Source: Acidobacteriota bacterium (GTDB lineage Bacteria > Acidobacteriota > Vicinamibacteria > Vicinamibacterales > UBA2999). From it: a stretch of 64,000 bases of DNA. The translations under genes were made by a program, and so were the position numbers. Within the stretch, counting starts at the first letter, position 1, and each line of letters opens with the position of its first letter. Location of the stretch: the NCBI GenBank assembly GCA_030650395.1, contig JAUSDY010000063.1:6855-70854 (forward strand), written 5' to 3'. Under the pieces are notes generated by a model. It saw only the letters and a list, made by a program, of their open reading frames with translations. It did no database searches and was not told the DNA's origin. Positions 210 through 35,626 of this stretch are shown piece after piece.

Positions 210-513
210 CACCATGGTGGACGGCGAACGGGCTGGTGGCGCTGTGCCGCGTGATTTACAAGCGCGCGGCATGCTGCCCGTTTCGGCGCGCGAGATGCTC
301 GACATCCTGTTCGATCAGGAGCCCGCCTGGCCGAAGCTCATGCGAAGCGTGAGCGGAGGCTGGCTGGGAGGCAGGGAGTCTCTACGCGAGATTCAAGAAA
401 CCCAGTAAACACGGGCGTTTTCTAGCAAGCGCCATAACGCCAGCGACTTGGCGTTTTCGGACCCTGTCGTCGGCTTTCGTCCGTTTGCGTCCTGTGTCGG
501 GTCTTGCCAGCGC

Positions 514-8107: not shown

Positions 8108-8384
8108 CTATCGCCGTTTCTTCTTCGGCTTGGGCTTGGGCTTGGCTGTCGTTTTTGTCCTCGTCTTGGGCTCTGGCTTGGCGCCCTTGGATTGCGGCTT
8201 TGCCGCAAGCACATCCTGTAGCTCATAGGCCTTGTTGTGGGGACAAACCTTTAGGTTTGTCCTTGACCGGAGCGATGCGCGGCGGAACCGCTTTGAGGAT
8301 GTGTCTGCGCGCGGTGGTATACCGCTCGCCGGTCTTGGCGGCGCGATCGCGAATCAGTTGCTTGAGGGCTCGGGCGCGGGTCAT
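8108..8384 (-). pseudogene. Small basic protein gene split by a 22-nt hairpin element
   Basis: ATG 8384 gives MTRARALKQLIRDRAAKTGERYTTARRHILKAVPPRIAPVKDKPKGLSPQQGL* (stop 8223). Deleting GGACAAACCTAAAGGTTTGTCC joins it in frame to ...NHNKAYELQDVLAAKPQSKGAKPEPKTRTKTTAKPKPKPKKKRR* (stop 8108). Confidence 0.4.
8237..8262 (+). repeat. GTRG-hairpin micro-element A1 (GACAAACC subfamily)
   Basis: GTGG GGACAAACC TTTA GGTTTGTCC; interrupts the small ORF 8108..8384. Confidence 0.85.
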
Positions 8385-9117: not shown

Positions 9118-11477
9118 GCTCCCGGCGCGACTTCATCAAATCGTCGGGCATGCTCGTCGTCGGGATTGCAGCGACGAACTCGCTTGCGGATGCATTCGTA
9201 GGGCCCCCCTTTATGGGGGGCCAAAATGCTGCGGGCCCGTATCCCGATCCCGATTTCCACCAGCTCGACTCCTGGATCGTCATCCGCCAGGACAACACCG
9301 CGACGTTCTTCGTCGGCAAGACCGATCTCGGCCAGGGCACCGGCACGGCGTTCCGCCAGATCATGTGCGACGAGCTCGACATCGCGTACGACAAGACCAG
9401 CTGCGTGATGGGCAGCACGCACAACACCGTCGATCAAGGCGGGTCCGGCGGATCCGATGCGTTGCAGACGGATGGCTATCCGATGCGCCGCGTCGCCGCC
9501 GAAGCCCGGCGTGTGTTGCTCGAGATGGGAGCGACCCATTTCGGCGTTCCCGTGTCTGCCCTCGCTGTGAGCGACGGTGTGATCTCCGTGCGTAGAGGCG
9601 GGTCTTTAGACCCGCCTACGCGTGGCGACAAACCTTTAGGTTTGTCGATCACCTACGGCGACCTGATCGGCGGCAGGAAGTTCAACGTCACGTTGACCGG
9701 CCGCAACACCGATGCGACCACGGGCGTTGCGCCGCTCAAGCCGGTGCAGGAGATGAAGAACGTCGGCAAGTCGCCGCAGCGCTACGACATTCCCGCCAAG
9801 GTTGAAGGCTCGCTGAAGTGGGCGGTGGACGTAAAGGCTCCGGGAATGGTCCACGCGCGCAACGTCAAGCCGCCGGTCGCCGGCGCCACGCTCGTCAGCA
9901 TCGACGAAGCGTCGGTGCGCGGGATTCCGGGGTTCATCACAGTGGTGAGCAAAGGCAACTACGTTGCGGTGGTGTGCGAGCGCGAGGAGCAGGCGATCCG
10001 CGCGGCGAGGCAGATCAAGGTCGACTGGAAGAAGCCGGCAACGGCGCCCTTCCCTGCTTCCGACGATCTGTTCACGTACATGCGCGCGGCGTCGCCCTCG
10101 TCTACTGGTAAACCAACTGAAATCGGCGCGACCGATGCCTCGTTCGCCAGTGCGGCCACGGTGATCGAAGCCGAGTACGACGTGCCGTTCCAGGGCCACA
10201 CCGCGATCGGCCCGGCGCATGCGATGGCCGATCCGTCGAACGATCAGCTCACCATCTACACCAACGACATGAAGTCGTACGGCATGCGCAACGGCGTCGC
10301 CGAGTTCCTCAAGATGCCGCGCGACCGCGTCCGCGTCGTCTGGATGGAAGGGCCGCAAGGCTACGGCCGCACCGCGGCGGACGATGCGGGGTTTGAGGCG
10401 GCGTATCTGGCAAAGGAGATCGGCCGTCCGGTGCGGGTGCAGTGGAGCCGGCAGGAAGAAACGGCGTGGGACACCAAGGGTCCGGCGTATGCGTTCAAGA
10501 TGCGCGGCGGCCTCGATGCCCAGGGCAACGTCGTCGCGCTCCACTACGACGCGTGCGCTGCAGATCACAATCATCTTGGCTACAACGAACACGAGACTGT
10601 TCTGATCTCGCAGCTGATGGGCATCCGGAAAGCGACGCCCTCGCCCGGACGTGCGTCGCTGCCGTCGGACATGTACGTGATTCCGAACCGCAAGCAGACG
10701 ACGAGGGTGGTGCCGCTGCCGATGCCGTTCGAGACGCCTCTTCGTACCGGCAACCTGCGCGACCCCGATGGTCCGCAGGTAACGTTTGCGGCGGAGAGCT
10801 TCATCGACGAGCTCGCCGTCGCGGCGAAGGCGGACCCGGTGGCGTTCCGCTTGAAGATGTTGCAGGCGAGCACGGGCGACGACAGCGGCTTCAAGCGCGC
10901 GCGCTCGATCGTGTGCATCAAGGCGGCGGCGGAGAAGTTCGGCTGGGACCCGCGCCCTTCACCGAAGGTGCCAGTTGGTGGAGACAAACCTTTAGGTTTG
11001 TCTGAAGATATTCTCACCGGCCGCGGCATCGCGTATGCGTACCGCAGTCAGACCGTGGTCGCCGAGATCGCCGAGGTCGAGGTCAATCGCAAGACCGGCC
11101 GCGTCTGGGTGAAGCGCCTGGTGATCGCGCACGACTGCGGGCTGGTGATCAACCCGGCCGCGCTCACGCGCGTGATCGAGTGCGGCGCGCTTTATGGTCT
11201 GAGCCGGGCGCTCCACGAGGAAGTGAAGTTCGACACCGAGAAGGTCACGAGCGTGGACTGGGTGACGCATCCGACGCTGACGCATGCGGATACGCCGGAG
11301 CGAATCGATGTGGTGCTGGTGAATGGGGACCCGAACCCGAACCGGCCCGACCTGCAGCACTACGGCGCCGGCGAGACGATGTGCAAGCCGATGCTGGCGG
11401 CGGTGGCGAACGCGGTATTTGATGCGACGGGAACCCGCTTGAGACGCATACCCCTTAGCCTCCCGCGTCCTGTTTGA
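9114..11477 (+). CDS. Molybdopterin-binding large subunit (IorB/aldehyde oxidoreductase type), Tat-exported
   Basis: ATGA overlap with the small subunit; twin-arginine signal SRRDFIKSSG; 787 aa; carries four hairpin inserts (see repeats). Confidence 0.9.
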   Translation: MSSRRDFIKSSGMLVVGIAATNSLADAFVGPPFMGGQNAAGPYPDPDFHQLDSWIVIRQDNTATFFVGKTDLGQGTGTAFRQIMCDELDIAYDKTSCVMGSTHNTVDQGGSGGSDALQTDGYPMRRVAAEARRVLLEMGATHFGVPVSALAVSDGVISVRRGGSLDPPTRGDKPLGLSITYGDLIGGRKFNVTLTGRNTDATTGVAPLKPVQEMKNVGKSPQRYDIPAKVEGSLKWAVDVKAPGMVHARNVKPPVAGATLVSIDEASVRGIPGFITVVSKGNYVAVVCEREEQAIRAARQIKVDWKKPATAPFPASDDLFTYMRAASPSSTGKPTEIGATDASFASAATVIEAEYDVPFQGHTAIGPAHAMADPSNDQLTIYTNDMKSYGMRNGVAEFLKMPRDRVRVVWMEGPQGYGRTAADDAGFEAAYLAKEIGRPVRVQWSRQEETAWDTKGPAYAFKMRGGLDAQGNVVALHYDACAADHNHLGYNEHETVLISQLMGIRKATPSPGRASLPSDMYVIPNRKQTTRVVPLPMPFETPLRTGNLRDPDGPQVTFAAESFIDELAVAAKADPVAFRLKMLQASTGDDSGFKRARSIVCIKAAAEKFGWDPRPSPKVPVGGDKPLGLSEDILTGRGIAYAYRSQTVVAEIAEVEVNRKTGRVWVKRLVIAHDCGLVINPAALTRVIECGALYGLSRALHEEVKFDTEKVTSVDWVTHPTLTHADTPERIDVVLVNGDPNPNRPDLQHYGAGETMCKPMLAAVANAVFDATGTRLRRIPLSLPRPV
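9198..9222 (+). repeat. GTAG-hairpin micro-element A2
   Basis: GTAG GGCCCCCC TTTAT GGGGGGCC; in frame in the Mo-oxidoreductase gene (encodes VGPPFMGG). Confidence 0.85.
9592..9619 (+). repeat. GTAG-hairpin micro-element A3
   Basis: GTAG AGGCGGGTC TTTA GACCCGCCT AC; a GTAG box on both strands; encodes RRGGSLDPPT. Confidence 0.85.
9622..9647 (+). repeat. GTRG-hairpin micro-element A4 (GACAAACC subfamily)
   Basis: GTGG CGACAAACC TTTA GGTTTGTCG, 2 nt after A3; encodes GDKPLGLS. Confidence 0.85.
10978..11003 (+). repeat. GTRG-hairpin micro-element A5 (GACAAACC subfamily)
   Basis: GTGG AGACAAACC TTTA GGTTTGTCT; same frame as A4, again encodes GDKPLGLS. Confidence 0.85.
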
Positions 11478-12051: not shown

Positions 12052-12107
12052 AACAGGAACTCAGAAGATCAGGAGAAAGTTTTCTCCTGATCTCGTGGAC
12101 TCCTGTT
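12052..12107. terminator. D-type long hairpin D2 downstream of the PEGA gene
   Basis: AACAGGA actcagaa GATCAGGAGAAA gt TTTCTCCTGATC tcgtggac TCCTGTT; outer 7-bp and inner 12-bp stems; 13 nt after the PEGA stop. Confidence 0.6.
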
Positions 12108-12120
12108 ACTTATCTGGCCG

Positions 12121-13035
12121 TTATGGCGTGATCGTCGTCAGCCGCTTGAGATCGCAGCCGGAGGGCAGCTTGAGATCCTGTGGCGGCACGTTGCCCATGT
12201 AACAACCGGGAATCAGGTACATCGTCCGGCTGCCGCTCGGCGCGGGTGGCGGCGCAAGCGCGGGCGGAGCGGCCGGCGCGGCCGGGAAAACGGGTGGAGG
12301 AACGACGCGCGTCGGCGCGATGCGATCGAGCGTGGCACGATACACGATGGTCCGCTCGGACACGATCTGCGCATCGATCGTCAGCGTCTTGTAACCGGGG
12401 GCGCGAAACTCGATGCGCCTCGAGCCGGGCTGCAGCTCGAGCTCGCCGCCAAGATCGGCCGGCGTGCCGAGGTATGCGCCATCGACGAACACTTGCAGGA
12501 TGTCGGCAGGCTCAACCTCGAGGCGGAGCCGTCCCGTCATCGGTTCCGGCACGACCGTGATCACACCAGGAACGATGGTGCCCTGCGTGACCTGCGTCGA
12601 GGACCCGATGCTGCCCCAAGGGTACGGCTGCCCCACATAGATATACGAGGGGCCCGGCCATGGTCCGAATGGATTGCCAAACCCTCTCTGCTGGCCGTCT
12701 CTCCGCTGATCGTCTCTCTGGCGGCCGTCTCTCTGTTGGCCGTTCTGTTGCCAGCCTTGCTGCTGCCAATCTCTTTGCTGCCACTCTCTCTGTTGCCAGT
12801 CTCGCTGGTGCCCGTCGCGCTGTTGCGGGCCTCGCTGTTGTCCTGTGTTGCCGCGCCTGGATTCATCGGCGGCTCCGCGGGGGGGCAAGCCGATCGACGG
12901 AAGCGGCAAGCCGAGCGAGGGCAACGGCTGGGCAATCGGCGCGACGGCGGATCCCCGCTGAACGGGCGCTACGTACTGCGCCGCGGCAATCGCGGGCACA
13001 CCGAGCAAGGCGAGGACGAGGCAGATGCCGCGCAT
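12121..13035 (-). CDS. Secreted PEGA-domain protein with Q/R/D/W tandem repeats
   Basis: Signal peptide MRGICLVLALLGVPAIAAAQ; LRLEVEPADILQVFVDGAYLGT...IEFRAPGYKTL is a PEGA module; central QQRDWQQREWQQRDWQQQGWQQ repeats. Confidence 0.75.
   Translation of the reverse strand: MRGICLVLALLGVPAIAAAQYVAPVQRGSAVAPIAQPLPSLGLPLPSIGLPPRGAADESRRGNTGQQRGPQQRDGHQRDWQQREWQQRDWQQQGWQQNGQQRDGRQRDDQRRDGQQRGFGNPFGPWPGPSYIYVGQPYPWGSIGSSTQVTQGTIVPGVITVVPEPMTGRLRLEVEPADILQVFVDGAYLGTPADLGGELELQPGSRRIEFRAPGYKTLTIDAQIVSERTIVYRATLDRIAPTRVVPPPVFPAAPAAPPALAPPPAPSGSRTMYLIPGCYMGNVPPQDLKLPSGCDLKRLTTITP
12682..12846 (-). repeat. Imperfect tandem repeats (about 12-15 nt units) encoding the Q/R/D/W-rich segment of the PEGA protein
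   Basis: Read directly: ctgttgccagtctc / ctgctgccaatctc / ctgttggccgttct type units. Confidence 0.7.
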
Positions 13036-13105: not shown

Positions 13106-13651
13106 ATGCCTCACCCCGGCACCCCTAAAAGGGGTGCCCTACCGCCGCTGCGCGATCGGATCCGGCCGGGCGTGCGCGTGCTCTTCGTCGGCATCAACCC
13201 CGGCATCCGGTCGTCGCAGACCGGCCATCACTTCGCCGGCCCGTCGAATCGGTTCTGGCTATTGCTGTATGCGTCGGGGCTCGTTCCCGAGCGGCTCACG
13301 TTGGAGCATGACGATCGGTTGCCTGAGTTCCGGTTCGGCATCACCAACATCGTTGCGCGGCCGACGCCCGGCATCGATACGCTGACGCCGGCCGAGTACG
13401 TCGAGGGCCGCCTCAAGCTGCGCCGGAAGATTCTGAAGAACAAGCCGAAGGTCGTGGCGATGGTCGGCGTGACGGTGTTCCGCGCGATGTTTCCCGGGCG
13501 GAAAGACGCGGTGACCCTCGGAATTCAATCCGAGCGAATCGGAGAAACGGCGGTCTTCGTGTTGCCCAATCCAAGCGGACGCAATGCCAACTTCACCTGC
13601 GCGGAAATGCTGGCGGCGTTTCGCGGGTTGCGACGCTACCTGGTCAGGTAG
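13106..13651 (+). CDS. mug: G/U mismatch-specific uracil-DNA glycosylase
   Basis: Colinear by eye with E. coli Mug as I remember it: VLFVGINPG, GHHFAGPSNRFW, NIVARPT, VLPNPSGRN; first 20 aa include a hairpin element. Confidence 0.85.
   Translation: MPHPGTPKRGALPPLRDRIRPGVRVLFVGINPGIRSSQTGHHFAGPSNRFWLLLYASGLVPERLTLEHDDRLPEFRFGITNIVARPTPGIDTLTPAEYVEGRLKLRRKILKNKPKVVAMVGVTVFRAMFPGRKDAVTLGIQSERIGETAVFVLPNPSGRNANFTCAEMLAAFRGLRRYLVR
13118..13142 (-). repeat. GTAG-hairpin micro-element A6
   Basis: + strand GGCACCCC TAAAA GGGGTGCC CTAC; in frame in the mug N-terminus (GTPKRGALP). Confidence 0.85.
13636..13651. repeat. 16-bp palindrome CTACCTG-gt-CAGGTAG forming the whole mug/gltD overlap
   Basis: Both convergent genes terminate in it (TAG on each strand); the proteins end ..YLVR* and ..YLTR*. 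Confidence 0.8.
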
Positions 13652-15122: not shown

Positions 15123-19763
<4,641 letters not shown>

Positions 19764-23328: not shown

Positions 23329-24645
23329 TCAGGTCACGGCCGCGCGCACGCTGAAGCGCGGGTCGCCCCATTCGCCGTCCTTCAGGACCTCGTGCAAGCG
23401 ATCGACCGCGTCCCACACATCGACGAACCGCGTGTAAAGCGGGGTGAAACCAAACCTGAGGATGTCTGGCGCGCGGAAGTCGCCGATCACCCCTCGCGCG
23501 ATCAGCGCCTGCACGATCGCGTAGGCGCCGCCGGCATGCGCAAACGACACCTGGCTGCCCCGCGCGCCGGCGTCGCGCGGGGTGACCAGCTCGAGACCCA
23601 GCCCCGCGCAGCGCGACTCGACCAGCTCGATGAACAGATCGGTGAGCGCGACCGACTTCTGCCGGATCGCCGCGAGCCCGCCGCGGGCCTCGGCTGCCAG
23701 CACGGTATCGACGCCGCACTCGAGCGCCGCCAGCGACAACACCGGCGGGGTGCCGCAGACGAACCGCGCCATTCCGGCGGCAGGCCGGTAGTTGGGGGTG
23801 AAATCGAACGGCGCGGCGTGGCCGAGCCAGCCAGACAGCGGCTGCCGCCAGCCGGTGCGATCCATCCACGCGATGTGACGCGGATGCGCCCACGCAAACG
23901 CGGGAGCACCCGGACCGCCGTTCAGATACTTGTAGCCGCAGCCAACAGCGAAGTCGGCATCTTCGTTGGTGTCGCCGGTCACGAGACGAATCGGCATCGC
24001 TCCCGCAGAGTGGGCAAGATCCCAAATCACGATCGCGCCGGCGTCGTGCGCGGCGCGCGTGACATCAGCCATGTCGTGCATGCGGCCGGTGCGGTAATTG
24101 ACGTGCGTCAACATCAGGATGGCGAGCTGATCGTTGAGGTGCTCGGGGAGCTCGCTGTGATCGACGAGCACCAGCTCGAAGCCGTGGTCGCGTGCGAGCG
24201 TCTCGGCAATGTACAAGTCAGTGGGAAAGTTGGTGCGCTCCGAGACAATTCGCTTGCGGGTACTGATCGCCATCGCCGCGCTCAGGACCTTGTAGAGATT
24301 GATCGACGTCGAATCGGCAACGACGACTTCGCCCGCACCTGCACCGATCAGCCGCGCGATTTTGGCGGCGATGCGCTGCGATAGGTCAATCCATCCCCTC
24401 GACTCGGAAGACCTCGCTCGGGACAAGCCCGCCGTCGAGTTCCAGCTGCGAATCAATCCGACGCCCCACTCATCTTCCACGACCGTGCGCACCCGGACAG
24501 CGGTTGCCCTCGGCACGACGCCGAGCGAGTTGCCGTCGAGATAGATGACGGCCGCTTCGTCAACCCGCTCCAGCGCGAATAGGCTCCGCAACGGTGCCAA
24601 TGGGTCGGCGGCGTCGCGAGCGGCAGAGTCGCTTCTTGAAAACAT
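23329..24645 (-). CDS. kynU: Kynureninase
   Basis: Near full-length colinearity with Pseudomonas KynU as I remember it: YLDGNSLG, IRSWNS, DSTSINLYKVL, CGYKYLNGGPG; carries one GC-rich insert. Confidence 0.9.
   Translation of the reverse strand: MFSRSDSAARDAADPLAPLRSLFALERVDEAAVIYLDGNSLGVVPRATAVRVRTVVEDEWGVGLIRSWNSTAGLSRARSSESRGWIDLSQRIAAKIARLIGAGAGEVVVADSTSINLYKVLSAAMAISTRKRIVSERTNFPTDLYIAETLARDHGFELVLVDHSELPEHLNDQLAILMLTHVNYRTGRMHDMADVTRAAHDAGAIVIWDLAHSAGAMPIRLVTGDTNEDADFAVGCGYKYLNGGPGAPAFAWAHPRHIAWMDRTGWRQPLSGWLGHAAPFDFTPNYRPAAGMARFVCGTPPVLSLAALECGVDTVLAAEARGGLAAIRQKSVALTDLFIELVESRCAGLGLELVTPRDAGARGSQVSFAHAGGAYAIVQALIARGVIGDFRAPDILRFGFTPLYTRFVDVWDAVDRLHEVLKDGEWGDPRFSVRAAVT
24395..24435 (+). 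repeat. Hairpin-less B-type element B3 inside kynU
   Basis: CCCCTCGACTCGG aag ACCTCGCTCGGGACAAGC...; encodes TAGLSRARSSESR between the conserved SWNS and GW.DLS. Confidence 0.6.
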
Positions 24646-24682
24646 CAGTGCAGAGTTCAGAGTTAAGAGTTCAGAGTCAACG
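24646..24682 (-). repeat. E-type intercistronic spacer E2 (kynB-kynU)
   Basis: Coding strand TTGACTCTGAACTCTTAACTCTGAACTCTGCACTG then ATG of kynU; the kynB stop TAA and last 5 codons lie inside the repeat. Confidence 0.75.
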
Positions 24683-25298
24683 ATCGCAACACGGCCCGCA
24701 CCGGCGAGGCGTCTGCGTCGATCAGCTTTAGCGGCAACGCGATCAGCTCGTAGTCGCCGGCCTCGACTTCATCGAGGACCAGGTTTTCCAGCACGCGCAT
24801 GTCGTGCTTCAACAGCCGTTGATGGCTATCGAGCGTTTTACTGCTGGCCGGGTCGACGGATTGGGAGTCGATTCCGACCAGCCGCACGCCAAGGCCGGCG
24901 AGCCAGTCGATGGTATCGGGCGCGAATGCCGAGAACTGGTCCGACCATTTCGCCGGCGCGTTCACGCACGTCCGCACCAGCACGCGGGGCGGAAGGGCGG
25001 CGACCGCGTGCTCGAGATGCGCTCGCGTGACGAGCGCGCCACGGTTGATGGCGTGGATCACGCGGCACGCGCCGAGATAGGGATCGAGATCGACCTGGCC
25101 GATCGCGCTGGCGCCGGCTGCGTAATGCAGCGGCGCATCGGCATGCGCGCCCAGATGCGGCGACATCGTGATTGCGCTGACGTTGACGGGACAGCCGGGG
25201 CCGATCTGCGCGTTCCACCGTTGCGAGTAGACGGTGTCGCCGGGAAAGGCGGGTGTCGCCGGGAAGATCGGCGGTGAGATGTCCCAAAGGCGCGGCAT
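24663..25298 (-). CDS. kynB: Kynurenine formamidase (arylformamidase, cyclase family)
   Basis: HLGAHADAPLH is the HxGxHxDxPxH metal motif; 17 nt upstream of kynU. Confidence 0.85.
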   Translation of the reverse strand: MPRLWDISPPIFPATPAFPGDTVYSQRWNAQIGPGCPVNVSAITMSPHLGAHADAPLHYAAGASAIGQVDLDPYLGACRVIHAINRGALVTRAHLEHAVAALPPRVLVRTCVNAPAKWSDQFSAFAPDTIDWLAGLGVRLVGIDSQSVDPASSKTLDSHQRLLKHDMRVLENLVLDEVEAGDYELIALPLKLIDADASPVRAVLRSLTLNS

Positions 25299-25313
25299 GT
25301 TGAAAACACGATA

Positions 25314-25346
25314 AAGGCAAAAGGCAAAAGGCAGAAGGCAAAAGGG
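25314..25346. repeat. Tandem heptamer AAGGCA(A/G), about 4.7 copies
   Basis: Read directly; divergent region between kynB (-) and the permease (+). Confidence 0.8.
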
Positions 25347-25369
25347 CGTATGCGTGTACCCTACGCGGC

Positions 25370-26731
25370 ATGTCTTCCGCCAGCTCGGCGCCGCCGAGTG
25401 AATCGCTGGTCCGCGCGATCGGCACGTTCGGGCTCGCCGCCGGGATCATCAACATCACGATCGGCGGCGGCATCTTCCGCCTGCCTGCGAACGTGGCTGA
25501 ATCGCTCGGCGCCGCGGCGCCGATCGCCTATCTCGTCTGCGCCGTTGCGATGGGTTTGATCGTGCTGTGCATCGCCGACGCGGGCAGCCGGGTCTCGCTC
25601 ACCGGCGGGCCGTACGCCTACGTCGGCACGGCGTTCGGGCCGTATGCCGGCTTCATCTCGGGCGTGCTGTTATGGATGCTCGGCACATTCGCGACTGCCG
25701 CGGTGTCAACGGTGCTGGCCTCGAGCCTTGGGCTGCTGATGCCGGCCCTGGCCGGCCGCACGATGGAGATCGCGATCCTGGTGGTCGCCTACGGTTTCTG
25801 GTCGCTCATCAACCTGCGCGGGGTCACACTCGGCGTGCGGCTCAATTCGATCGCGACGGTGGCGAAGCTGCTGCCGCTGTTGCTGGTGGCAATCGGCGGA
25901 GCGTTCTTCGTGCAGAGCGAGAACCTGCGCATCGTGTCGATGCCCGCGGCGGCGGACGTCGCTCGCACCTCACTGCTGTTGATCTTCGCCTTCGCGGGGA
26001 TCGAATGCGCGCTCGTGCCGAGCGGCGAAGTGCGCGACACCGCGCGCACGGTTCCGCGCGCGATCGCGCTTGCCATGCTCGGCATCACCGCGCTCTACGT
26101 GGCGCTGCAAGTGGTGGCGCAGGGCATTCTTGGCAGCGGCCTCGCGCACGCCACCGTGTCGCCGCTCGCCGACGCCGCCGGCGCTTCACTCGGCGGCTGG
26201 GCACGCTCACTCTTGCTCGCCGGTGCGACCGTCTCGATGTTCGGCTACCTGGGCGGCATGACGCTCTCGATGCCGCGAATGCTGTTCGCACTCGCCCGCG
26301 ACGGCTTCCTGCCGCGCGCGCTGGCGTCGGTGCACCCGGTGCATCGCTCACCCCAGGCCGCCATCATCGCGCAGTCGCTTCTCGCGCTCGTGTTGGCCAT
26401 CTCCGGCACGTTCGAGAAACTCGCCATCCTCGCCAACGTCTCGGCGCTGGCGCTGTATTTCGGCTGCGCGCTGGCGTCGTGGCGGCTTCGTCAGCTCGGC
26501 GTGAGCGGCCCTTCGACTCGTTCCCGCCCCTTTCGGGGCGGGACCTCGCTCAGGGCAGGCGACGTGGTGCCATGGCTGGCGTGCGCCGTGATCGTGTGGC
26601 TGCTTACCGGCCTGACGCGCGACGAGTGGCTCGGCTTCGGCGTGTGCCTTGCGGCCGGAACGCTGGTGTATTTCTTGGCACGTTCGCGGAAGTTTAGTTC
26701 CGCGATCGACAGCAATAGAATGCAGGGATGA
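25370..26731 (+). CDS. APC-superfamily amino acid permease
   Basis: 453 aa, about 12 hydrophobic segments; C-terminal tail carries two repeat inserts. Confidence 0.85.
   Translation: MSSASSAPPSESLVRAIGTFGLAAGIINITIGGGIFRLPANVAESLGAAAPIAYLVCAVAMGLIVLCIADAGSRVSLTGGPYAYVGTAFGPYAGFISGVLLWMLGTFATAAVSTVLASSLGLLMPALAGRTMEIAILVVAYGFWSLINLRGVTLGVRLNSIATVAKLLPLLLVAIGGAFFVQSENLRIVSMPAAADVARTSLLLIFAFAGIECALVPSGEVRDTARTVPRAIALAMLGITALYVALQVVAQGILGSGLAHATVSPLADAAGASLGGWARSLLLAGATVSMFGYLGGMTLSMPRMLFALARDGFLPRALASVHPVHRSPQAAIIAQSLLALVLAISGTFEKLAILANVSALALYFGCALASWRLRQLGVSGPSTRSRPFRGGTSLRAGDVVPWLACAVIVWLLTGLTRDEWLGFGVCLAAGTLVYFLARSRKFSSAIDSNRMQG
26509..26561 (+). repeat. 53-nt composite GC-rich element B1
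   Basis: CCCTTCGACTCG tt CCCGCCCC tttc GGGGCGGG ACCTCGCTCAGGGCAGGCG; in frame in the permease (GPSTRSRPFRGGTSLRAG). Confidence 0.8.
26685..26704. repeat. Hairpin micro-element A10 (CGCGGAA subfamily, degenerate GTAG box)
   Basis: CGCGGAA GTTTAG TTCCGCG; in frame in the permease tail (SRKFSSA). Confidence 0.7.
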
Positions 26732-27717
26732 CTTCAACGCTCCCGATCCTGAAGACCGAGGATGTGCTGGAGGCCCTGCGCGGCCTCAGGACACGCCAGC
26801 CGGTCAAATACTGGGCTTTTTACTCCAGCCAGCTCGGTGGCATCGTCACCGACCCGGCGCTGATGGTGTTGCCGTTCGACGACCACATGGTCCATCGCGG
26901 GCACGGCATCTTCGACACCGCGGCGATCGTCGGCGGCAAGCTTTACGACCTCGACGCTCACCTCGACCGCTTCATCGCATCGGCCGAGCGTTCCAAGCTT
27001 CGCTTGCCGGGCACGCGCCAGCAAATGCGCGACATCATCATGGCCACCGCCGCTGCCAGCGGCAAACCCGACGGCGGCATCCGCTACTGGCTTTCATCCG
27101 GGCCCGGCAGTCTCGATCTCACCCCGGCCGCCGGCGCGGATCCCGGGTTCTTCGTCATGATCTTCGCCGGCCTCTCGTACCCCGAACGTTGGTACAACGA
27201 GGGGCTCAAGGTGATGACGACGACGTACCCGATCAAGCCGGCGCTCTACGCGATCACCAAAAGCACGAACTATCTGCCCAACGTGCTGATGCAGATGGAA
27301 GCGAAAGAAGTCGGTCTCGATAACGGCGTCTTCATCGACAAGGACGGCTTCATCGGCGAGAGCTCGAACATGAACGTGGCGTTCGTCACGCAGGACGGCG
27401 TGTTCCGCCATCCGAAGTTCGATCAGATCCTGTCGGGCTGCACGTCCAAGCGGCTGCTCGAGCTCGCGCCCCGATTGGTGGAGCGCGGTCTCATCAAAGG
27501 CGTTGAGGTCTGCGACATCCCGGTCGCCGACGCGCGCGCCGCGCGGGAGATGATGCTGTTCGGCAGCTCGATCAAGGTGGCGCCGATCGTCGAGTGGGAC
27601 AAGAAGCCGATCCACGACGGCAAGCCCGGACCGGTATCGAAGGCGCTACTCGAGCTGCTCGAGGAAGACATGCGGACGACGAGTCAGGGCCGGCTGGTCG
27701 ATCTGGGCACCCCATAA
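26728..27717 (+). CDS. Class IV (fold-type IV) aminotransferase
   Basis: 329 aa; HRGHGIFDT, NYLPNVLMQMEAKEVG, ESSNMNVAFV motifs; ATGA overlap with the permease; stop codon lies in a hairpin loop. Confidence 0.85.
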   Translation: MTSTLPILKTEDVLEALRGLRTRQPVKYWAFYSSQLGGIVTDPALMVLPFDDHMVHRGHGIFDTAAIVGGKLYDLDAHLDRFIASAERSKLRLPGTRQQMRDIIMATAAASGKPDGGIRYWLSSGPGSLDLTPAAGADPGFFVMIFAGLSYPERWYNEGLKVMTTTYPIKPALYAITKSTNYLPNVLMQMEAKEVGLDNGVFIDKDGFIGESSNMNVAFVTQDGVFRHPKFDQILSGCTSKRLLELAPRLVERGLIKGVEVCDIPVADARAAREMMLFGSSIKVAPIVEWDKKPIHDGKPGPVSKALLELLEEDMRTTSQGRLVDLGTP

Positions 27718-27730
27718 AGGGGTGCCCTAC
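27706..27730 (-). repeat. GTAG-hairpin micro-element A12
   Basis: + strand GGCACCCC ATAAA GGGGTGCC CTAC; the loop TAA (27715-27717) is the aminotransferase stop codon. Confidence 0.85.
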
Positions 27731-27734
27731 ATCG

Positions 27735-28040
27735 TTATTTCCCCAGCTCGACGATCGTGATGGCGTTCCAGTCGTTCATCGGAATCACCAGGCGATTGCG
27801 CTTCGAGTCGTAGGTCATCGACGCCGCGCTTGGAATGCCGGAAGCAATAATCTCCGCCTTCTGCCCCGGGCGGATGCGCGACACGGTGCCCTGCCGCACG
27901 CTGCTGACGTACTTGGTGCCGTCGGGAACGATGACGAGGCCATCGTTACCGGCGTCGACTGCCTGCTCGGTCGCCAGCAGCTTGCCGTCGGGCGAAAACG
28001 TCAGGACGTCGTTGGATCCTTGGATGACGACCGATCGATC
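27735..28040 (-). pseudogene. C-terminal fragment of a beta-propeller protein (SMP-30/NHL-like)
   Basis: Only the last ~100 codons of track ORF 27735..28232 look protein-like (VVIQGSNDVLTFSPDGKLLATE...NRLVIPMNDWNAITIVELGK); upstream part is a shadow of the neighbouring frame. Confidence 0.4.
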
Positions 28041-28759
28041 GGTTCCATCCGGTAGACCGGCGTCGGCTTGCCGTCGCGATCGTCGGTGACCAGGTAGATC
28101 AACCCATCGAGTCCCTGGCGGATGTCGCGGATGCGGCCCATCTGCGGCACCAGCGTTTCGCGCGGGCTCGTCGGCGTCAGCCGCACCAATTGCTGGCCGA
28201 CCATGCCACCGACAAAGAGATGGTTCCGCCACTGCGGAAACTTGTCGCCGGTGTAGAACATCATCCCGGAGATGCCGATCGACGGGACCCAGACCTGCAC
28301 CGGTTGTTCCATGCCCTCGCGGTGCGTGCCCGAATGAATCGCCAGCCCCGTCGTGTAGTTAACGCCGAACCCAACCACCGGCCAGCCGTAGTTGCGGCCC
28401 GGAAGAATGCGATTGAGCTCGTCACCGCCCTGCGGCCCGTGTTCGTTCGCCCACACCTCGCCGGTTTCCGGATGAATGGCGAGTCCCTGGACGTTGCGAT
28501 GCCCGTAACTCCAGATCTCGGGCCGCGCGTCCGCGCGGTTCACAAACGGATTGTCGGCCGGCACCCGGCCATCGTCATGCAGCCGGATAGTCTTGCCGTG
28601 GTGGTTCGACAGATCCTGCGCCGGGTGCGCTTCGAGCTTGCCTTCCGGCGGCACCTGGCGATCGCCGAGCGTGAGAAAGAGGAAGCCGTTCTTGTCGAAC
28701 GCAATCTTGCCGCCGAAGTGCCCGCGGCCGGTGGAGACTGATTCGAACAACTGCGTCAC
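28001..28759 (-). pseudogene. PQQ-dependent sugar dehydrogenase (YliI-like), N-terminal third missing
   Basis: HFGGKIAFDKNGFLFLTLGD, GHRNVQGLAIHP, GGDELN, NYGWP ... PVYRMEP motifs; homology starts at about residue 130 of a typical ~370-aa enzyme; no signal peptide. Confidence 0.65.
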
Positions 28760-28776
28760 GCCGGTGAGCCGATCGA

Positions 28777-28788
28777 GGGGTGCCCTAC
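28777..28788 (-). repeat. Half element A13 (right arm plus GTAG box only)
   Basis: + strand GGGGTGCC CTAC with no left arm; CTA (28785-28787) is the complement of the truncated pilT stop TAG. Confidence 0.6.
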
Positions 28789-29597
28789 CTCATGATCAGC
28801 GAGTCTTCATCGGGCACATCCGCCAGCTGCACGCGCAGGTTGCCGGCGTTGGTGGCGTAAAGGTACGCGGTCAACGCGATCTCGATGGTCTCGCGGTCGC
28901 GCATCTCGCCGACTAGAATCACCTTCGGCGCCTGCCGCAGCGCGGCGCGCAGCGCCAGCGCGAACGTCGGCGTGTCGTTGTGCAGCTCGCGCTGGTGGAC
29001 GGTGCCCATCTTGTGGACGTGCAGGAACTCGATCGGGTCCTCGATGGTGAGGATGTGCTCGGCGCGGCTTTCGTTGATCAAATCGATGATCGCGGCCAGC
29101 GTGGACGACTTGCCGGAGCCGGTCGGGCCGGTCACCAGCACGATGCCGTTCTTGAGCGTGGCCGTGTCGGCAATCGCGGGCGGCAGGTTCAGCTCCTCGA
29201 TGCTGGGAATCTTCGACGCGATCATCCGCATCACGATCGCGAACGTGTTGCGCTGCTTGAAGACGTTGACGCGAAACCGGCACCGGTCGGGCAGCGAATA
29301 CGACAGATCGGTCGCGCCCTGTTCTTTCAGCGTCTTCAACACGTGCTCGTTGCCGTTGATCAGGTCGCAGGCGATGCCGGCCGTATCTTCCGGCCGCAGC
29401 ACCGGCAGCTCGGGCACCGAGACGGGCATCAAGTTGCCGTGCCGCTCGACCTGCGGCGGGCGCCAGGGTGAGAACACCAGGTCGCTGATGCCGTCGCCCG
29501 AGTCAATCAACGCCAGGATGACTGCCGGCGTCGGCAAGGCGCGGGTCTTGTCGGTGCCAAACAGTGCGTCGTTCAGGGTAGAAGCCGGGGTCGTCAT
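28785..29597 (-). pseudogene. pilT: PilT-like type IV pilus retraction ATPase, C-terminally truncated
   Basis: Walker A GPTGSGKSST, Asp box, Walker B ILVGEMRD present, but the sequence diverges after ETIEIALTA; the His box (TGHLV..TLHT) is absent; 270 aa versus about 345-370 typical. Confidence 0.65.
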
Positions 29598-29615
29598 AGT
29601 CGGAGCGTTAGCTTA

Positions 29616-29668
29616 CCCTTCGACTCGATCCCGCCGCTATAGCGGCGGGATCTCGCTCAGGGCAGGCG
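29616..29668 (+). repeat. 53-nt composite GC-rich element B2
   Basis: CCCTTCGACTCG at CCCGCCGC tata GCGGCGGG ATCTCGCTCAGGGCAGGCG; intergenic; 47/53 identical to B1 with a compensated stem change. Confidence 0.8.
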
Positions 29669-29774
29669 CTCCCCTCAGAGCAGGCCGATCGCAAAAAACA
29701 GGCCGAAAAGCACGACGAGATTCGGCGGATGTTCGAGGCGGAGCTGGCGGGATTGCGGAAGACGGGAGGACACG

Positions 29775-30674
29775 GTGAGTGATCCGTTCATCATCGAGAC
29801 GGCCGGACTCCACAAGAACTACGACGGTATCGAAGCGCTGCGCGGCCTGACCCTCCAGGTGCCGGCTGGCTCGATCTTCGGGTTCCTGGGCAGAAACGGC
29901 GCCGGCAAGACGACGACGATCAAGATCCTGCTCGGCCTGGCAAAGCCGACCAGCGGCAAGGCGCACGTCTTCGGGCTCGATGCCGACGATCAGGCGGCGA
30001 GCGTCGCGATCCGACGCCGCACGGCGTTTGTCAGCGACGAAAAGGATCTCTACGACTACATGACCGTGGGCGAGATGATTCGGTTCACCGCCTCCTTCTT
30101 CCCGAAATGGCGCGCCGACATGGAGGAGCGGCAACTGCGCCGCTTCGACTTGCGACGCGAGCGGCCGATCAAAGGACTGTCGCGCGGCATGCGCACCAAG
30201 CTTTCGCTGCTGCTCGCGCTGTGCCGCGGCGCCGAGCTGCTGATCCTCGATGAGCCGACCTCGGGCCTCGACCCCGTCGTGACCGAAGAGGTGCTGCAGG
30301 CGCTCGTCTCCGGCGTGGCCGGCGAAGCGATGACAGTGTTCTTCTCGTCGCACCAGATTAGCGAGGTCGATCAAATCGCCGATCACGTCGCGATCATCGA
30401 TCGCGGGCAGTTGGCGATCTCGGGTGCGCTCGACGACCTGCGCCAGAATTATCGGCGCATCCAACTGGTCTTCGAGGGCGACGCGCCGAACGTCAAGTTC
30501 CACCCCGCCGGCGTCAGGCGCGTGCAGCGCAAGGGCCGCGTCCTCACGATTCTCTCCAGTGCCGGGACCGAGCAAATCCTGGACGAAGCCAAACGCTACC
30601 GTCCCGTCTCGATCGACGTCGTCCCCGTCACGCTGAAAGACATTTTTCTCGAAACCGTTGCCGCGGAGGACTGA
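29775..30674 (+). CDS. ABC transporter ATP-binding protein
   Basis: GTG start 4 nt after GGGAGGA; Walker A GRNGAGKTT, signature LSRGMRTKLSL, Walker B LLILDEPTSGLD. Confidence 0.9.
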   Translation: MSDPFIIETAGLHKNYDGIEALRGLTLQVPAGSIFGFLGRNGAGKTTTIKILLGLAKPTSGKAHVFGLDADDQAASVAIRRRTAFVSDEKDLYDYMTVGEMIRFTASFFPKWRADMEERQLRRFDLRRERPIKGLSRGMRTKLSLLLALCRGAELLILDEPTSGLDPVVTEEVLQALVSGVAGEAMTVFFSSHQISEVDQIADHVAIIDRGQLAISGALDDLRQNYRRIQLVFEGDAPNVKFHPAGVRRVQRKGRVLTILSSAGTEQILDEAKRYRPVSIDVVPVTLKDIFLETVAAED

Positions 30675-31368: not shown

Positions 31369-31451
31369 CGAGTGCCACGGTGTCGGCGGGGATTTTATAC
31401 GGCGCCGCCACTAATTTCGCCCGGCAGGATTTCTAACGCGCACAGGACAGC

Positions 31452-31475
31452 GTAGCGCGGAACTTTAGTTCCGCG
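31452..31475 (+). repeat. GTAG-hairpin micro-element A11
   Basis: GTAG CGCGGAAC TTTA GTTCCGCG; the complement of loop positions 31465-31467 is the ArsR stop TAA. Confidence 0.85.
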
Positions 31476-33767: not shown

Positions 33768-35546
33768 ATGAAGAACCTCAGCCTTCGGACAAACCTAAAG
33801 GTTTGTCCCCACATCGTGACGCTCGTCCTGATGGGGGGCGCCCTGCTGTCGGCGCGCCAACTGCAACCGCCGCCCCCGCCGGTAGCGGCACCGATGCCTG
33901 CGCTGCTGAAGAGCTACACGGCAGTCACGGCCGAACGGTTGAAGAGTCCAGCAGACGCGGACTGGCTGATGATTCGGCGCAGCTACGACGGGTGGGGCTA
34001 CAGCCCGCTCGATCAGATCACGCCGGCCAACATCTCCCGGCTGCAGCCGGCGTGGGTGTTTTCAACCGGCGTGAACAGCGGGCACGAGGCGCCGCCGATC
34101 GTCAACAACGGCGTGATGTTCGTCTCGACGCCGGGTCACCGCGTCACCGCCCTCGATGCCAGGACCGGTGTGATGCTGTGGCGCTACATCAAGGAAGTCG
34201 CCGATCCGATCGTCGCACCGCATCCCACGACGCGCGGCATCGCGCTCTACGGCGACAAGGTGTTCTTCGCCGCCAACGATGCGGTGCTGGTCGCGCTCGA
34301 CGCCAGGACCGGCACGCAGCTGTGGACCGCCACCGTCGCCGACAACAAGAGCGGCTACTACATGACGCTGGCGCCGCTCGTCGCCGACGGCAAGGTGATG
34401 GTCGGCGTGTCGGGAGGCGAGCTCGGGGTGCGCGGCTTCATCGCCGCCTACGATCCCGACAGCGGCAAGCAAGTGTGGAAGACCTACACCGTGCCCGCGC
34501 CCGGTGAGCCAGGCAGCGAGACGTGGCCGAACGGCAACCAGTGGAGAACCGGCGGCGCACCGGTGTGGGTCACCGGCAATTACGATCCGCAAACCAATCT
34601 CGCCTTCTGGGGCACCGGCAACGGTGGACCGTGGATGGGCGATCAGCGGCCCGGCGACAATCTCTATACCGCGTCGGTCGTCGCCGTCGATGCCGCCACC
34701 GGGCGCATCAAAGGCCACCATCAATATCATCCGAACGATTCGTGGGATTGGGACGAGGTCTCGCCGCCGATCCTGGTCGATTACCAGCGTAACGGCCGCA
34801 CCATCAAGGGCCTGATCGACGTCGCGCGTAACGGCTATCTGTGGTTCCTGGAGCGCACCGACGGCGCGATCAACTTCGTCGAAGGCACGCCGTTCGTCAG
34901 GCAGAACGTGTTCAGGAGCCTTGACCCGAAGACCGGACGGCCCGACGTGGATCCGGCGCGCAAGCCCGGCACCGGCAAGACCGCGGATTTCTGCCCGTCA
35001 CATTGGGGCGGCAAGAACTGGCCGCCGATTGCGTACAGCCCGAAGACGCGGCTGATCTACATCCCCGCCAACGAGAACCTGTGCGGCACGCTGGTCGGCC
35101 GTGACGTCGCGTACACGCCAGGCAGCGGCTATACCGGCGCGACGAGCACATTGGTCATCACCCCCGGCGCCGACCATATCGGCGAAGTGCAAGCGTGGAA
35201 CGTCGACACCGGCAAGCGAGTGTGGACGCACAATTATCCGAAGTCGGCGAACTGGGGACCGATGCTCGCCACCGGCGGCGGGCTCGCATTTACCGGCGGT
35301 ACCAACGATCGGATGTTTCACGCGTTCGACGCGTCGACCGGCAAGCTGTTGTGGGAGTTTCCAACCAACTCCGGCATCACCGGCCAGCCTTCGTCGTTCA
35401 TGGTCGACGGCAAGCAGTACATCGCCGTGATGTCGGGCTGGGGCGTCGACGCCAGGGCGGTGCAGCTCCGGCTCAACCGGTTGATGCCGGGTGATTACCC
35501 GGAGGTGCCCGAGGGCGGGGCGATCTGGGTCTTCGCGATCAAATAA
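33768..35546 (+). CDS. PQQ-dependent alcohol dehydrogenase (methanol/ethanol family)
   Basis: Eight-bladed quinoprotein pattern (repeated ALDARTG..LW / A.D..TGK..W motifs); NDSWDWDE active-site segment; signal-peptide region contains a hairpin element; ATG 33768 preferred to GTG 33759. Confidence 0.88.
   Translation: MKNLSLRTNLKVCPHIVTLVLMGGALLSARQLQPPPPPVAAPMPALLKSYTAVTAERLKSPADADWLMIRRSYDGWGYSPLDQITPANISRLQPAWVFSTGVNSGHEAPPIVNNGVMFVSTPGHRVTALDARTGVMLWRYIKEVADPIVAPHPTTRGIALYGDKVFFAANDAVLVALDARTGTQLWTATVADNKSGYYMTLAPLVADGKVMVGVSGGELGVRGFIAAYDPDSGKQVWKTYTVPAPGEPGSETWPNGNQWRTGGAPVWVTGNYDPQTNLAFWGTGNGGPWMGDQRPGDNLYTASVVAVDAATGRIKGHHQYHPNDSWDWDEVSPPILVDYQRNGRTIKGLIDVARNGYLWFLERTDGAINFVEGTPFVRQNVFRSLDPKTGRPDVDPARKPGTGKTADFCPSHWGGKNWPPIAYSPKTRLIYIPANENLCGTLVGRDVAYTPGSGYTGATSTLVITPGADHIGEVQAWNVDTGKRVWTHNYPKSANWGPMLATGGGLAFTGGTNDRMFHAFDASTGKLLWEFPTNSGITGQPSSFMVDGKQYIAVMSGWGVDARAVQLRLNRLMPGDYPEVPEGGAIWVFAIK
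33787..33812 (-). repeat. GTRG-hairpin micro-element A14 (GACAAACC subfamily)
   Basis: + strand GGACAAACC TAAA GGTTTGTCC CCAC; in frame in the n-region of the PQQ-ADH signal peptide (RTNLKVCPH). Confidence 0.85.
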
Positions 35547-35626
35547 CAGGAGGCCAGGAGGTCAGGAGAAAATATTTCTCCTGACCTCCTGAACTCCTGT
35601 TTGGTTTTCTTCTGGTCTCCTGTTAG
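35545..35626. terminator. D-type long hairpin D3 plus tail, between convergent genes
   Basis: 27-nt arms, 25/27 paired: AACAGGAGGCCAGGAGGTCAGGAGAAA ata TTTCTCCTGACCTCCTGAACTCCTGTT, then GGTTTTCTTCTGGTCTCCTGTTAG; both flanking stop codons lie in TAACAGGAG motifs. Confidence 0.7.

Follow-up and report, generated by a model that had tools for sequence, protein, structure and literature searches.

The locus and its three copies of the element

A stretch of 64,000 nucleotides (nt) of contig JAUSDY010000063.1 from an Acidobacteriota bacterium (assembly GCA_030650395.1), referred to as the window, was found to contain a short GC-rich element at three places. Two composite copies, B1 and B2, were located inside an amino-acid permease gene and between two genes, respectively, and a hairpin-less copy was located within the kynureninase gene kynU. 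The three probably belong to one family of dispersed palindromic repeats. KynU and the permease each had a 100% identical counterpart in an Acidobacteriota metagenome-assembled genome at NCBI, with Vicinamibacterales as nearest named relatives. The features were as follows.

23329-24645, minus strand: kynU (kynureninase), Pfam KYNU_C, E = 1e-136 to 1QZ9, intact apart from the 36-nt insert
24395-24430, plus strand: hairpin-less copy CCCCTCGACTCG-GAAGAC-CTCGCTCGGGACAAGCCC, antisense to kynU, a 36-nt insertion read as (T)AGLSRARSSESR
25370-26731, plus strand: APC-family amino-acid permease gene, host gene of B1
26509-26561, plus strand: B1 composite element inside the APC permease gene, read as PSTRSRPFRGGTSLRAG; left flank 26509-26520, centre 26521-26544, right flank 26545-26561
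26523-26542, plus strand: B1 hairpin, 8-bp stem CCCGCCCC/GGGGCGGG, loop TTTC
29616-29668, plus strand: B2 composite element, with the pilT-like remnant on one side and the ABC ATPase gene on the other
29628-29651, no strand assigned: B2 central palindrome ATCCCGCCGCTATAGCGGCGGGAT, perfect, 24 nt
29669-29778, plus strand: GntR 3'-end remnant, no start codon before the ATG near 29729

Direct comparison of B1 and B2 showed identity at 47 of 53 positions, and no other site in the 64-kb window contained the left 12-mer CCCTTCGACTCG or the right 17-mer CTCGCTCAGGGCAGGCG in exact form. The six differences formed three pairs. The first replaced one stem pair, C-G in B1, by G-C in B2, so that the stem CCCGCCCC/GGGGCGGG was compensated in the corresponding CCCGCCGC/GCGGCGGG; the second replaced a T.C mismatch at the stem foot by A-T and gave B2 one extra pair, followed by the third, which changed the loop TTTC of B1 to TATA in B2. 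Paired changes were found to keep or perfect the central stem: four of the six differences were of this kind, keeping or extending it, and because of the changes in the stem foot and the loop the B2 centre at 29628-29651 is a perfect palindrome. The folding of B2 was found to reach z = -5.2 against shuffled sequence, with weaker values for B1 (z = -1.4 on the plus and -2.4 on the minus strand). The identity of 47/53 and the compensated stem difference had both been reported by the first-pass annotation, and both were seen in the sequence.

The kynU copy was found to contain, at 24395-24428, a left flank matching at 11 of 12 positions and a right flank matching at 9 of 12, with 6 nt in place of the hairpin. 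The insert of 36 nt, or 12 residues, aligned as SWNSTAGLSRARSSESRGW against SWNS------------AGWRDLS in Pseudomonas fluorescens KynU (1QZ9). A version with both flanks and no hairpin had been proposed earlier and was borne out as the insertion at 24395-24430, and the Pseudomonas KynU sequence SWNSAGWRDLS, given with it, was correct by the same alignment. The closest orthologues with an empty site (L251, L123 and L122; related loci are given by L numbers) did not contain the insert, L251 reading TGGAAC ACA GCA GGC TGG.

A relaxed flank match of the kynU grade is expected by chance about 0.5 times per 64-kb window, which favours an unrelated lineage-specific loop with a coincidental resemblance to the B flanks. 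The copy was nevertheless judged to be real because the match coincides exactly with the 36-nt insertion, and because clear family copies, in sense orientation and with hairpins, fill the same site in other KynU orthologues. The CCCCTCGACTCG...CTCGCTCGGGGCA variant was also found to form a dispersed subfamily of at least 120 loci, with no kynU among the matches listed. Coincidence is effectively refuted and is given a negligible probability.

In the kynU frame the consensus A in CTCAGGG would make an in-frame TGA (antisense frame 2); the kynU copy was found to contain G (CTCGGG) and so avoids it. The insert peptides, as given by the reading frames, were GLSRARSSESR in KynU and PSTRSRPFRGGTSLR in the permease. 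The earlier suggestion that the elements are read as protein fits the kynU and permease copies, which would be translated in frame within otherwise intact genes. The AlphaFold2 model of KynU contained predicted local distance difference test (pLDDT) values below 50 for residues 62-82, insert included; the model is moderate (mean pLDDT 78) and poor also in regions unrelated to the insert, and lends weak support to a disordered loop.

Anatomy and boundaries of the family

The family was found to be dispersed and abundant. One scan covered two flanks 0-30 nt apart in one genome per GTDB species, and a second covered the CCCC/GGGG variant, as in kynU, in JGI metagenome contigs; each returned at least 120 loci, and B1 and B2 are not the sole copies. 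The anatomy described here is based on 249 copies extracted from the matches listed in the two scans.

The consensus, written with its flanking cytosines, was found to contain C-CC(T/C)TCGACTCG, a variable centre, and CTCGCTC(A/G)GGGCA(G/A)G-C. The ends, CCC(T/C)TCGACTCG on the left and CTCGCTC(A/G)GGGCAGGC on the right, were constant and non-identical, and CCC(T/C) pairs with (A/G)GGG to close a GC-rich, imperfectly palindromic element of 24-55 nt. The same two flanks enclosed a centre of 0, 1, about 5 or up to 30 nt, in agreement with the modular structure, flanks with or without the hairpin, that the first-pass annotation had described. Absence of the centre gave a 24-nt element reading PFDSLRAG, PSTRSGQ or LRLAQGR according to frame, and the commonest centre, CTNCG, gave a 33-nt element. 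Other centres were found to contain a hairpin of almost any sequence, such as GAGCCC-TGAC-GGGCTC or CGACGGCGACAATGCCGTCG, or the element nested in itself, in one or the other orientation (L131, L159, L173; three-deep in L125). Inverted doublets were present in L036, L061 and L089. The commonest full lengths, 24 and 33 nt, were both multiples of three, though most copies are extragenic.

The boundaries were found to be sharp, with C at position -1 in 114 of 123 copies and C at +1 in 106 of 123, and with unrelated DNA outside. At upstream positions -5 to -2 no fixed word was seen, purines being weakly preferred at -2. Direct repeats of 5 nt or more at the ends were present in 9 of 123 copies against 2.3 expected, mostly within tandem heptamer arrays, and outside tandem arrays these 123 copies contained no target-site duplication beyond chance. 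The flanks are part of the element, and the idea, raised for checking in the first-pass annotation, that they are related to the target site did not hold. Terminal inverted repeats were absent, the left flank having only CCCY/RGGG and the 3-bp CGA/TCG in common with the right flank read in reverse complement. A right flank was located within 60 nt of the left flank in 141 of 154 cases, the rest having degenerate left flanks, and a long autonomous element bounded by both flanks was rejected on this ground.

In bystander copies, whose selection did not depend on the scan patterns, the base at left position 4 and the one pairing with it on the right were found to be T-A in 36, C-G in 15, T.G in 4 and C.A in none. 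This covariation fits a closing stem CCCY/RGGG, though subfamily descent alone could give it. Copies were often found in or beside tandem hexamer or heptamer arrays (GGCTGGC, GGCTCAC, GGGAAC, CGACAAA, GCGAAGG), as in L018, L043, L047, L049, L060, L078 and L109, and L044 contained a 40-nt tandem array of a variant element. The subtype with the CCCGCC(C/G)C hairpin had no match in the metagenome scan, which also missed the known copy in L121, the lineage evidently being absent from that collection.

Presence and absence at orthologous sites

Orthologous sites were found to differ in whether they contain a copy, and copies occurred in both orientations. The closest relative, L121, whose DNA is 94-97% identical to the window, contained the same B1, the same kynU insert and a B2. 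Within the 34 visible nt of B2 in L121, the only two differences were found at both partners of the stem pair C29630-G29649 (C->G, G->C); two random changes would hit both partners of one B2 pair about 1% of the time. At about 85% identity, L123 and L124 contained no kynU insert and no B2, and their B1 was diverged, with the hairpin largely decayed.

The kynU site was found to be occupied by antisense copies in the window, L121 and L129, by a sense copy in L127 and by sense copies with two different hairpins in L128 and L252, and to be empty in L251, L123, L122 and 1QZ9. The 12 residues are not a general property of KynU: among 120 orthologues, 99 contained no insert, 5 an antisense insert, 14 a sense insert and 2 other inserts. 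The five antisense inserts comprised the window lineage and a separate clade at 72% identity (GLPRAKSAESR). The sense inserts were of the PRLGGPRSGQA form, equal to CCCCTCGACTCGGCGGACCTCGCTCGGGGCAAG in L127, and included the two with different hairpins in L128 and L252. A neighbour-joining tree of the 120 sequences required gains or losses, at least 2 for the antisense and about 11 for the sense form.

B1 was located in the loop that joins the last two hydrophobic segments (transmembrane segments TM11-12) of the APC permease and was identical in L121, here a relative of 96% identity. The lineages nearest the window, L123 and L130, contained diverged copies at the B1 position; the L123 copy was decayed, most of all in the hairpin, and L130 contained another, longer centre between conserved flanks. 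The more distant L122 and L127 were found to contain the native permease loop and no copy at the B1 position, followed in L127 by the presence of its own hairpin-less copy a few codons upstream of that position. The window lineage contained no native loop, as opposed to a native loop with an insert. Among 120 permease orthologues, the loop was found to contain PSTALRAG, PSTALGAG or PSTAIGAG at two different positions, with two inserts in P0051 and a composite in P0027. Copies within genes were in frame and in variable loops.

The native permease loop G-TAFRV-P (GTAFRVP; L127, about 214-245, minus strand) was found to contain a 6-bp hairpin, GGCACC-GCATTCCG-GGTGCC, followed by GCTCGCAG, and the loop was about 12 residues shorter in some permease orthologues. 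The whole native loop may derive from an ancient copy of a similar element that has since decayed.

The adjacent gene for a class IV aminotransferase served as control. Peptides of the element in six frames were found in 0 of its 120 orthologues, and its lengths, mostly 326-330 aa, were much more uniform. The kynU SWNx|AGW site and the permease loop are insertion hot spots, through tolerance or attraction; survival of copies in tolerant loops only would explain why they are hit repeatedly and the neighbouring gene is not.

B2 at a deletion scar

B2 was found to be associated with one deletion. The order in L123 was a full pilT-like gene, a 243-nt spacer, a gene for a 132-residue GntR regulator and an ABC ATPase gene overlapping the GntR stop. 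Homology of the window to L123 stopped at 29615, the base before B2, and resumed at 29717, so that 558 nt of the 85%-identical L123 were replaced by 101 nt starting with B2. The replaced DNA comprised the spacer and most of the GntR gene. The frame of the GntR tail is closed by a stop at 29609-29611 and offers no start until the ATG near 29729, so that the regulator is lost in the window. The first-pass annotation had called B2 intergenic; its position is indeed between genes, and it is not in plain spacer, since it begins exactly at the left edge of the deletion scar.

A second word resembling the right flank, CTCAGAGCAGGC, was present at 29674-29685, five bases past B2. No promoter-like or terminator-like site was found at B2, and a role of B2 as promoter or terminator was rejected on this ground.

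Four more deletions within 1.2 kb were found in the window against L121, at 27733, 28019, 28775-28785 and 28866-28876, with sizes of 3.2 kb (a histidine kinase, a response regulator and one more gene), 690, 409 and 346 nt. Both a pilT-like gene (28785-29597) and a glucose/sorbosone dehydrogenase gene (28001-28759) are cut short by them. The first deletion adjoined a hairpin of a GTAG-tagged repeat described below, the third was filled by 15 nt (AGGGGTGCCCTACCT) equal to half of that hairpin, and the fourth contained 7 nt of microhomology. They may represent real gene decay or an assembly artefact.

Association with genes, RNA and enzymes

Most copies are extragenic and without orientation bias relative to transcription. 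A crude gene call at high-GC loci gave 34 sense and 34 antisense genic copies, followed by intergenic copies of which 16 were co-directional and same-sense, 10 co-directional and opposite-sense, 16 between divergent and 8 between convergent genes. By a stricter test, 7 of 167 copies were deep inside genes.

Only a tRNA in the window was above the gathering threshold of Rfam 15, and the best E-values at B1 and B2 under permissive settings were 0.8-9; a known structured RNA family was rejected, there being no match at either threshold. Counts of G.U pairs were similar on both strands, so that wobble pairs single out no RNA strand, and the reverse-complement strand was found to fold better by a mean of 1.3 kcal/mol (89 of 118 copies versus 26).

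All-against-all clustering of 4005 open reading frames within 2.5 kb of about 240 copies contained no recurrent transposase-like family, distant single-copy genes being outside this view. The families that did recur were common ones: histidine kinases, MacB/FtsX permeases and Ser/Thr kinases.

Distribution

Acidobacteriota accounted for about two thirds of the genome matches listed (Vicinamibacterales, Holophagae, Thermoanaerobaculia, Terriglobia). Patescibacteria were represented among them by Parcubacteria, Peribacteria/Peregrinibacteria, Kaiser-, Zambryski- and Nomurabacteria and Saccharibacteria, followed by the presence of Planctomycetota, Nitrospirota, Eremiobacterota, Chloroflexota, one cyanobacterium and several proteobacteria. 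The exact 22 specified flank bases were shared across metagenome-assembled genomes (MAGs) of Acidobacteriota, Patescibacteria, Planctomycetota, Nitrospirota and others, and near-identical copies of 31-33 nt were found in Acidobacteriota and Patescibacteria. Several copies were located in AT-rich DNA on long contigs. A Saccharibacteria IleRS, at a locus of 34% GC, was found to contain an in-frame insert of 11 residues, NPSTRSARSGQ, just upstream of the HIGH-motif region; this insert is absent from T. thermophilus IleRS (1ILE).

In L066 118-260 (Peribacteria), a 33-nt copy of the element was found to have upstream of it the initial 21 nt of a lepA-like gene (ATGGAAATCAGGAACTTCTGC), and 17 nt past the copy an intact second lepA-like start (ATGGAAATTAGAAATTTTTGCATCATAGCGCAT...) was present, so that the 5' end of the gene is partially duplicated around the insert.

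Viral contigs of IMG/VR contained the element at 2 loci only, PLSDB plasmids gave matches at chance level only, and GenBank phages gave none. A phage or plasmid vector was rejected on these grounds.

Nature of the element and its mode of copying

B1, B2 and the kynU insert are best regarded, with a probability of roughly 0.6, as one family of very short palindromic repeats that multiplies as non-autonomous DNA in the manner of repetitive extragenic palindromic (REP) sequences, Rickettsia palindromic elements (RPEs) or MITEs, the miniature inverted-repeat transposable elements. The family apparently acts like small selfish DNA and not like a designed gene feature. New copies would land widely, and inside genes only those that are in frame and free of stops, in tolerant surface loops, would survive selection. 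The peptides PSTxLRAG, PRLGGPRSGQA and GLSRARSSESR would then arise passively, as by-products of the frame in which the copies are read. The palindromic centre would be kept or renewed at the DNA level, by hairpin-templated correction or by conversion from other copies, and this renewal may also be a route to local instability, as at B2 with the adjacent loss of GntR. The most likely candidates for the copying activity would be a single-strand, hairpin-recognising enzyme of the HUH/Y1 type or microhomology-primed template switching. The absence of duplication and of inverted ends fits the former and also the latter.

Several points weigh against this reading. The translation of the inserts is deduced from intact frames only, and B1 does not appear to be a clean simple insertion. 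No act of transposition was observed, a gain being indistinguishable from a precise loss, and no mobilising gene was found near the roughly 240 copies. The reuse of exactly one codon position of kynU in both orientations may reflect target specificity and not only selection. The near-identity across phyla is hard to explain for a lineage-bound element of the REP type with no vector visible; nearly all genome matches are MAGs, whose phylum labels rest on binning.

Copying entirely without a transposase of its own, by microhomology-primed template switching or short-patch conversion in replication and repair, is an unlikely alternative to the family of non-autonomous mobile repeats. The element would seed where native DNA resembles one of its ends and would perfect or replace its own palindromic centre. 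Such a process suits the lack of target-site duplications, terminal inverted repeats and a nearby transposase. Words resembling the 3' end of the element were found in native sequence at or beside the insertion points: GCAGGC in the empty kynU site of L251, the native permease loop's CTGGCAGG (L122) and CTCGCAGCC (L127), and CTCAGAGCAGGC just past B2. This resemblance is a lead seen post hoc, however, and the antisense kynU copies overlap native sequence by 2-3 nt only. Nested and stacked half-copies (L125, L131, L159, L173), a centre that is wholly different among 90%-identical permease genes (window, L123, L130) and the fact that all six differences between B1 and B2 make B2 a perfect palindrome also point to template switching, which leaves the spread of identical sequence between phyla unexplained.

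A DNA or RNA element useful to the host, such as a protein-binding or recombination site or a structured RNA for stability or processing, with the genic copies as by-products, is less probable still. The flanks near-identical across phyla, the covarying closing stem, the compensatory changes in the central stem between orthologous copies and the folding of B2 (z = -5.2 against shuffled sequence) would all be expected of it. Covariation in a repeat family can, however, reflect subfamily descent alone, and the hairpin is optional and of unconstrained sequence, that of the permease copy in L123 being especially decayed. Rfam contained no matching family, G.U counts were alike on both strands with slightly better folding of the reverse complement, and B2 contained no promoter-like or terminator-like site. 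The copies were without orientation bias relative to genes, many of them lying between divergent genes.

A more far-reaching version of the mobile-repeat reading is put forward tentatively and is regarded as rather doubtful. It holds that a micro-element of 24-33 nt with fixed asymmetric ends, near letter-for-letter the same from soil Acidobacteriota to Patescibacteria, targets its own centre (giving the nested, stacked and hairpin forms) and re-enters the same few codon positions of housekeeping genes both ways. It would be copied by a mechanism undescribed for bacterial repeats, whether an activity common to many hosts or a widely transferred enzyme whose gene does not adjoin its substrates, and would be a pan-bacterial source of small loop insertions in proteins and of the strings of the PFDSLRAG and SGQA types that abound in protein catalogues from metagenomes.

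Comparison with known repeat families

REP sequences and their REPIN doublets are mobilised by RAYT transposases, GTAG-tagged families included (Bertels and Rainey 2011, PMC3116915; Di Nocera et al. 2013, PMC3733652). The element resembles them as a short (20-40 nt) GC-rich imperfect palindrome with an unpaired tail and many copies per genome, with subfamilies differing in stem or loop, inverted doublets and occasional copies inside genes. In contrast to them, it contains no GTAG or GTGG tag, starts with CCC(T/C)TCGAC and ends with GGCAGGC, and no RAYT gene was found nearby; its centre ranges from nothing to a nested copy, and many copies are located between divergent genes. REPINs are described as lineage-bound and vertically inherited, whereas the element is near-identical across phyla.

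The CGTC-tagged REPs (Di Nocera et al. 2013, PMC3733652) and the RPEs (review PMC10969869) share with the element palindromic repeats located in frame in unrelated housekeeping genes and read as an extra peptide, intragenic in-frame copies being documented for both (PMC3733652, PMC10969869). In-frame insertion into unrelated genes, as in RPEs, would apply to the element in kynU, the APC permease and IleRS. Like the element, the CGTC class has no known dedicated transposase and occurs in several phyla. CGTC REPs differ in ending with CGTC and in having 8-9-bp stems with AT at the first positions, whereas RPEs are about 100-150 bp long and confined to Rickettsia, against 24-55 nt, different ends and different taxa for the element.

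The bacterial MITEs Correia, ERIC, RUP and Nezha (review PMC10969869) are likewise non-autonomous and dispersed, and they too may become fused in frame to host genes or mark rearrangements. MITEs are, however, defined by terminal inverted repeats and target-site duplications; neither was found here, and the MITE model was rejected. Palindrome-associated elements derived from IS200/IS605 insert, without duplication, 3' of a fixed tetra- or pentanucleotide; the present copies contained no duplication and also no fixed upstream word, purines being weakly preferred at -2.

Yeast mitochondrial GC clusters and 'byp' elements, said to have been reported by Lang et al. in PNAS in 2014, are reportedly palindromic, GC-rich mobile inserts of 27-55 nt in protein genes. 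Ribosomes are said to pass over byps, for which the reading frame need not be kept. The DNA-checked inserts in kynU and the permease differ, since all were multiples of 3 and free of stops, which fits ordinary translation; the sample for this comparison consisted of called full-length proteins, in which out-of-frame copies would be missed.

Literature searches with DNA words of the element and its six-frame peptides returned no description of it, which is not proof that none exists. The element is similar to REPs, CGTC REPs and RPEs, fails the defining sequence features of each family, and has a taxonomic range unlike theirs.

Other repeats in the window

Separate REP-like hairpins, GGCRCCCC-(A/T)TAAA-GGGGYGCC followed by CTAC, were found in the window; on the other strand they read as GTAG plus a palindrome, the classical REP signature. 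Because of them, the host genome is seen to hold both kinds of repeat. Two further hairpin families, GTGGGGACAAACCTTTAGGTTTGTCC and GTAGCGTGGAACTTTAGTTCCGCG, each contained a GT(A/G)G-type tag and a TTTA/TAAA loop. The positions were as follows.

13118-13142, 16009-16033, 27706-27730 and 9198-9227, partial at 28769-28796: GTAG REP-like hairpins
8237-8268, 9622-9653, 10978-11009 and 33783-33814, also 17322-17350 and 31447-31475: the two further hairpin repeat families GTGGGGACAAACCTTTAGGTTTGTCC and GTAGCGTGGAACTTTAGTTCCGCG

A 45-nt unit (TCTGYTGCCAGYCTC-like) was present six times at 12687-12833, the copies overlapping at a spacing of 15 nt. A 27-nt inverted repeat, 93% complementary and with a 3-nt spacer (AACAGGAGGCCAGGAGGTCAGGAGAAA / TTTCTCCTGACCTCCTGAACTCCTGTT), was present at 35545-35601, and an arm related to it was found 23 kb away at 12080-12111.

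Implications

If the reading of a mobile repeat family is true, identical copies of 31-33 nt in distant phyla without a visible vector or enzyme would be beyond what the known REP/RAYT systems explain. Much of the repeat-derived low-complexity peptide content in predicted proteins of soil and groundwater metagenomes would be due to a single short DNA repeat, and this would matter for annotation and for the filtering of spurious protein families. The element would mark local change of the genome, as with the loss of the regulator gene at B2, and its insertions would amount to an experiment repeated by nature, in which defined loops of enzymes and transporters gain 8-18 residues.

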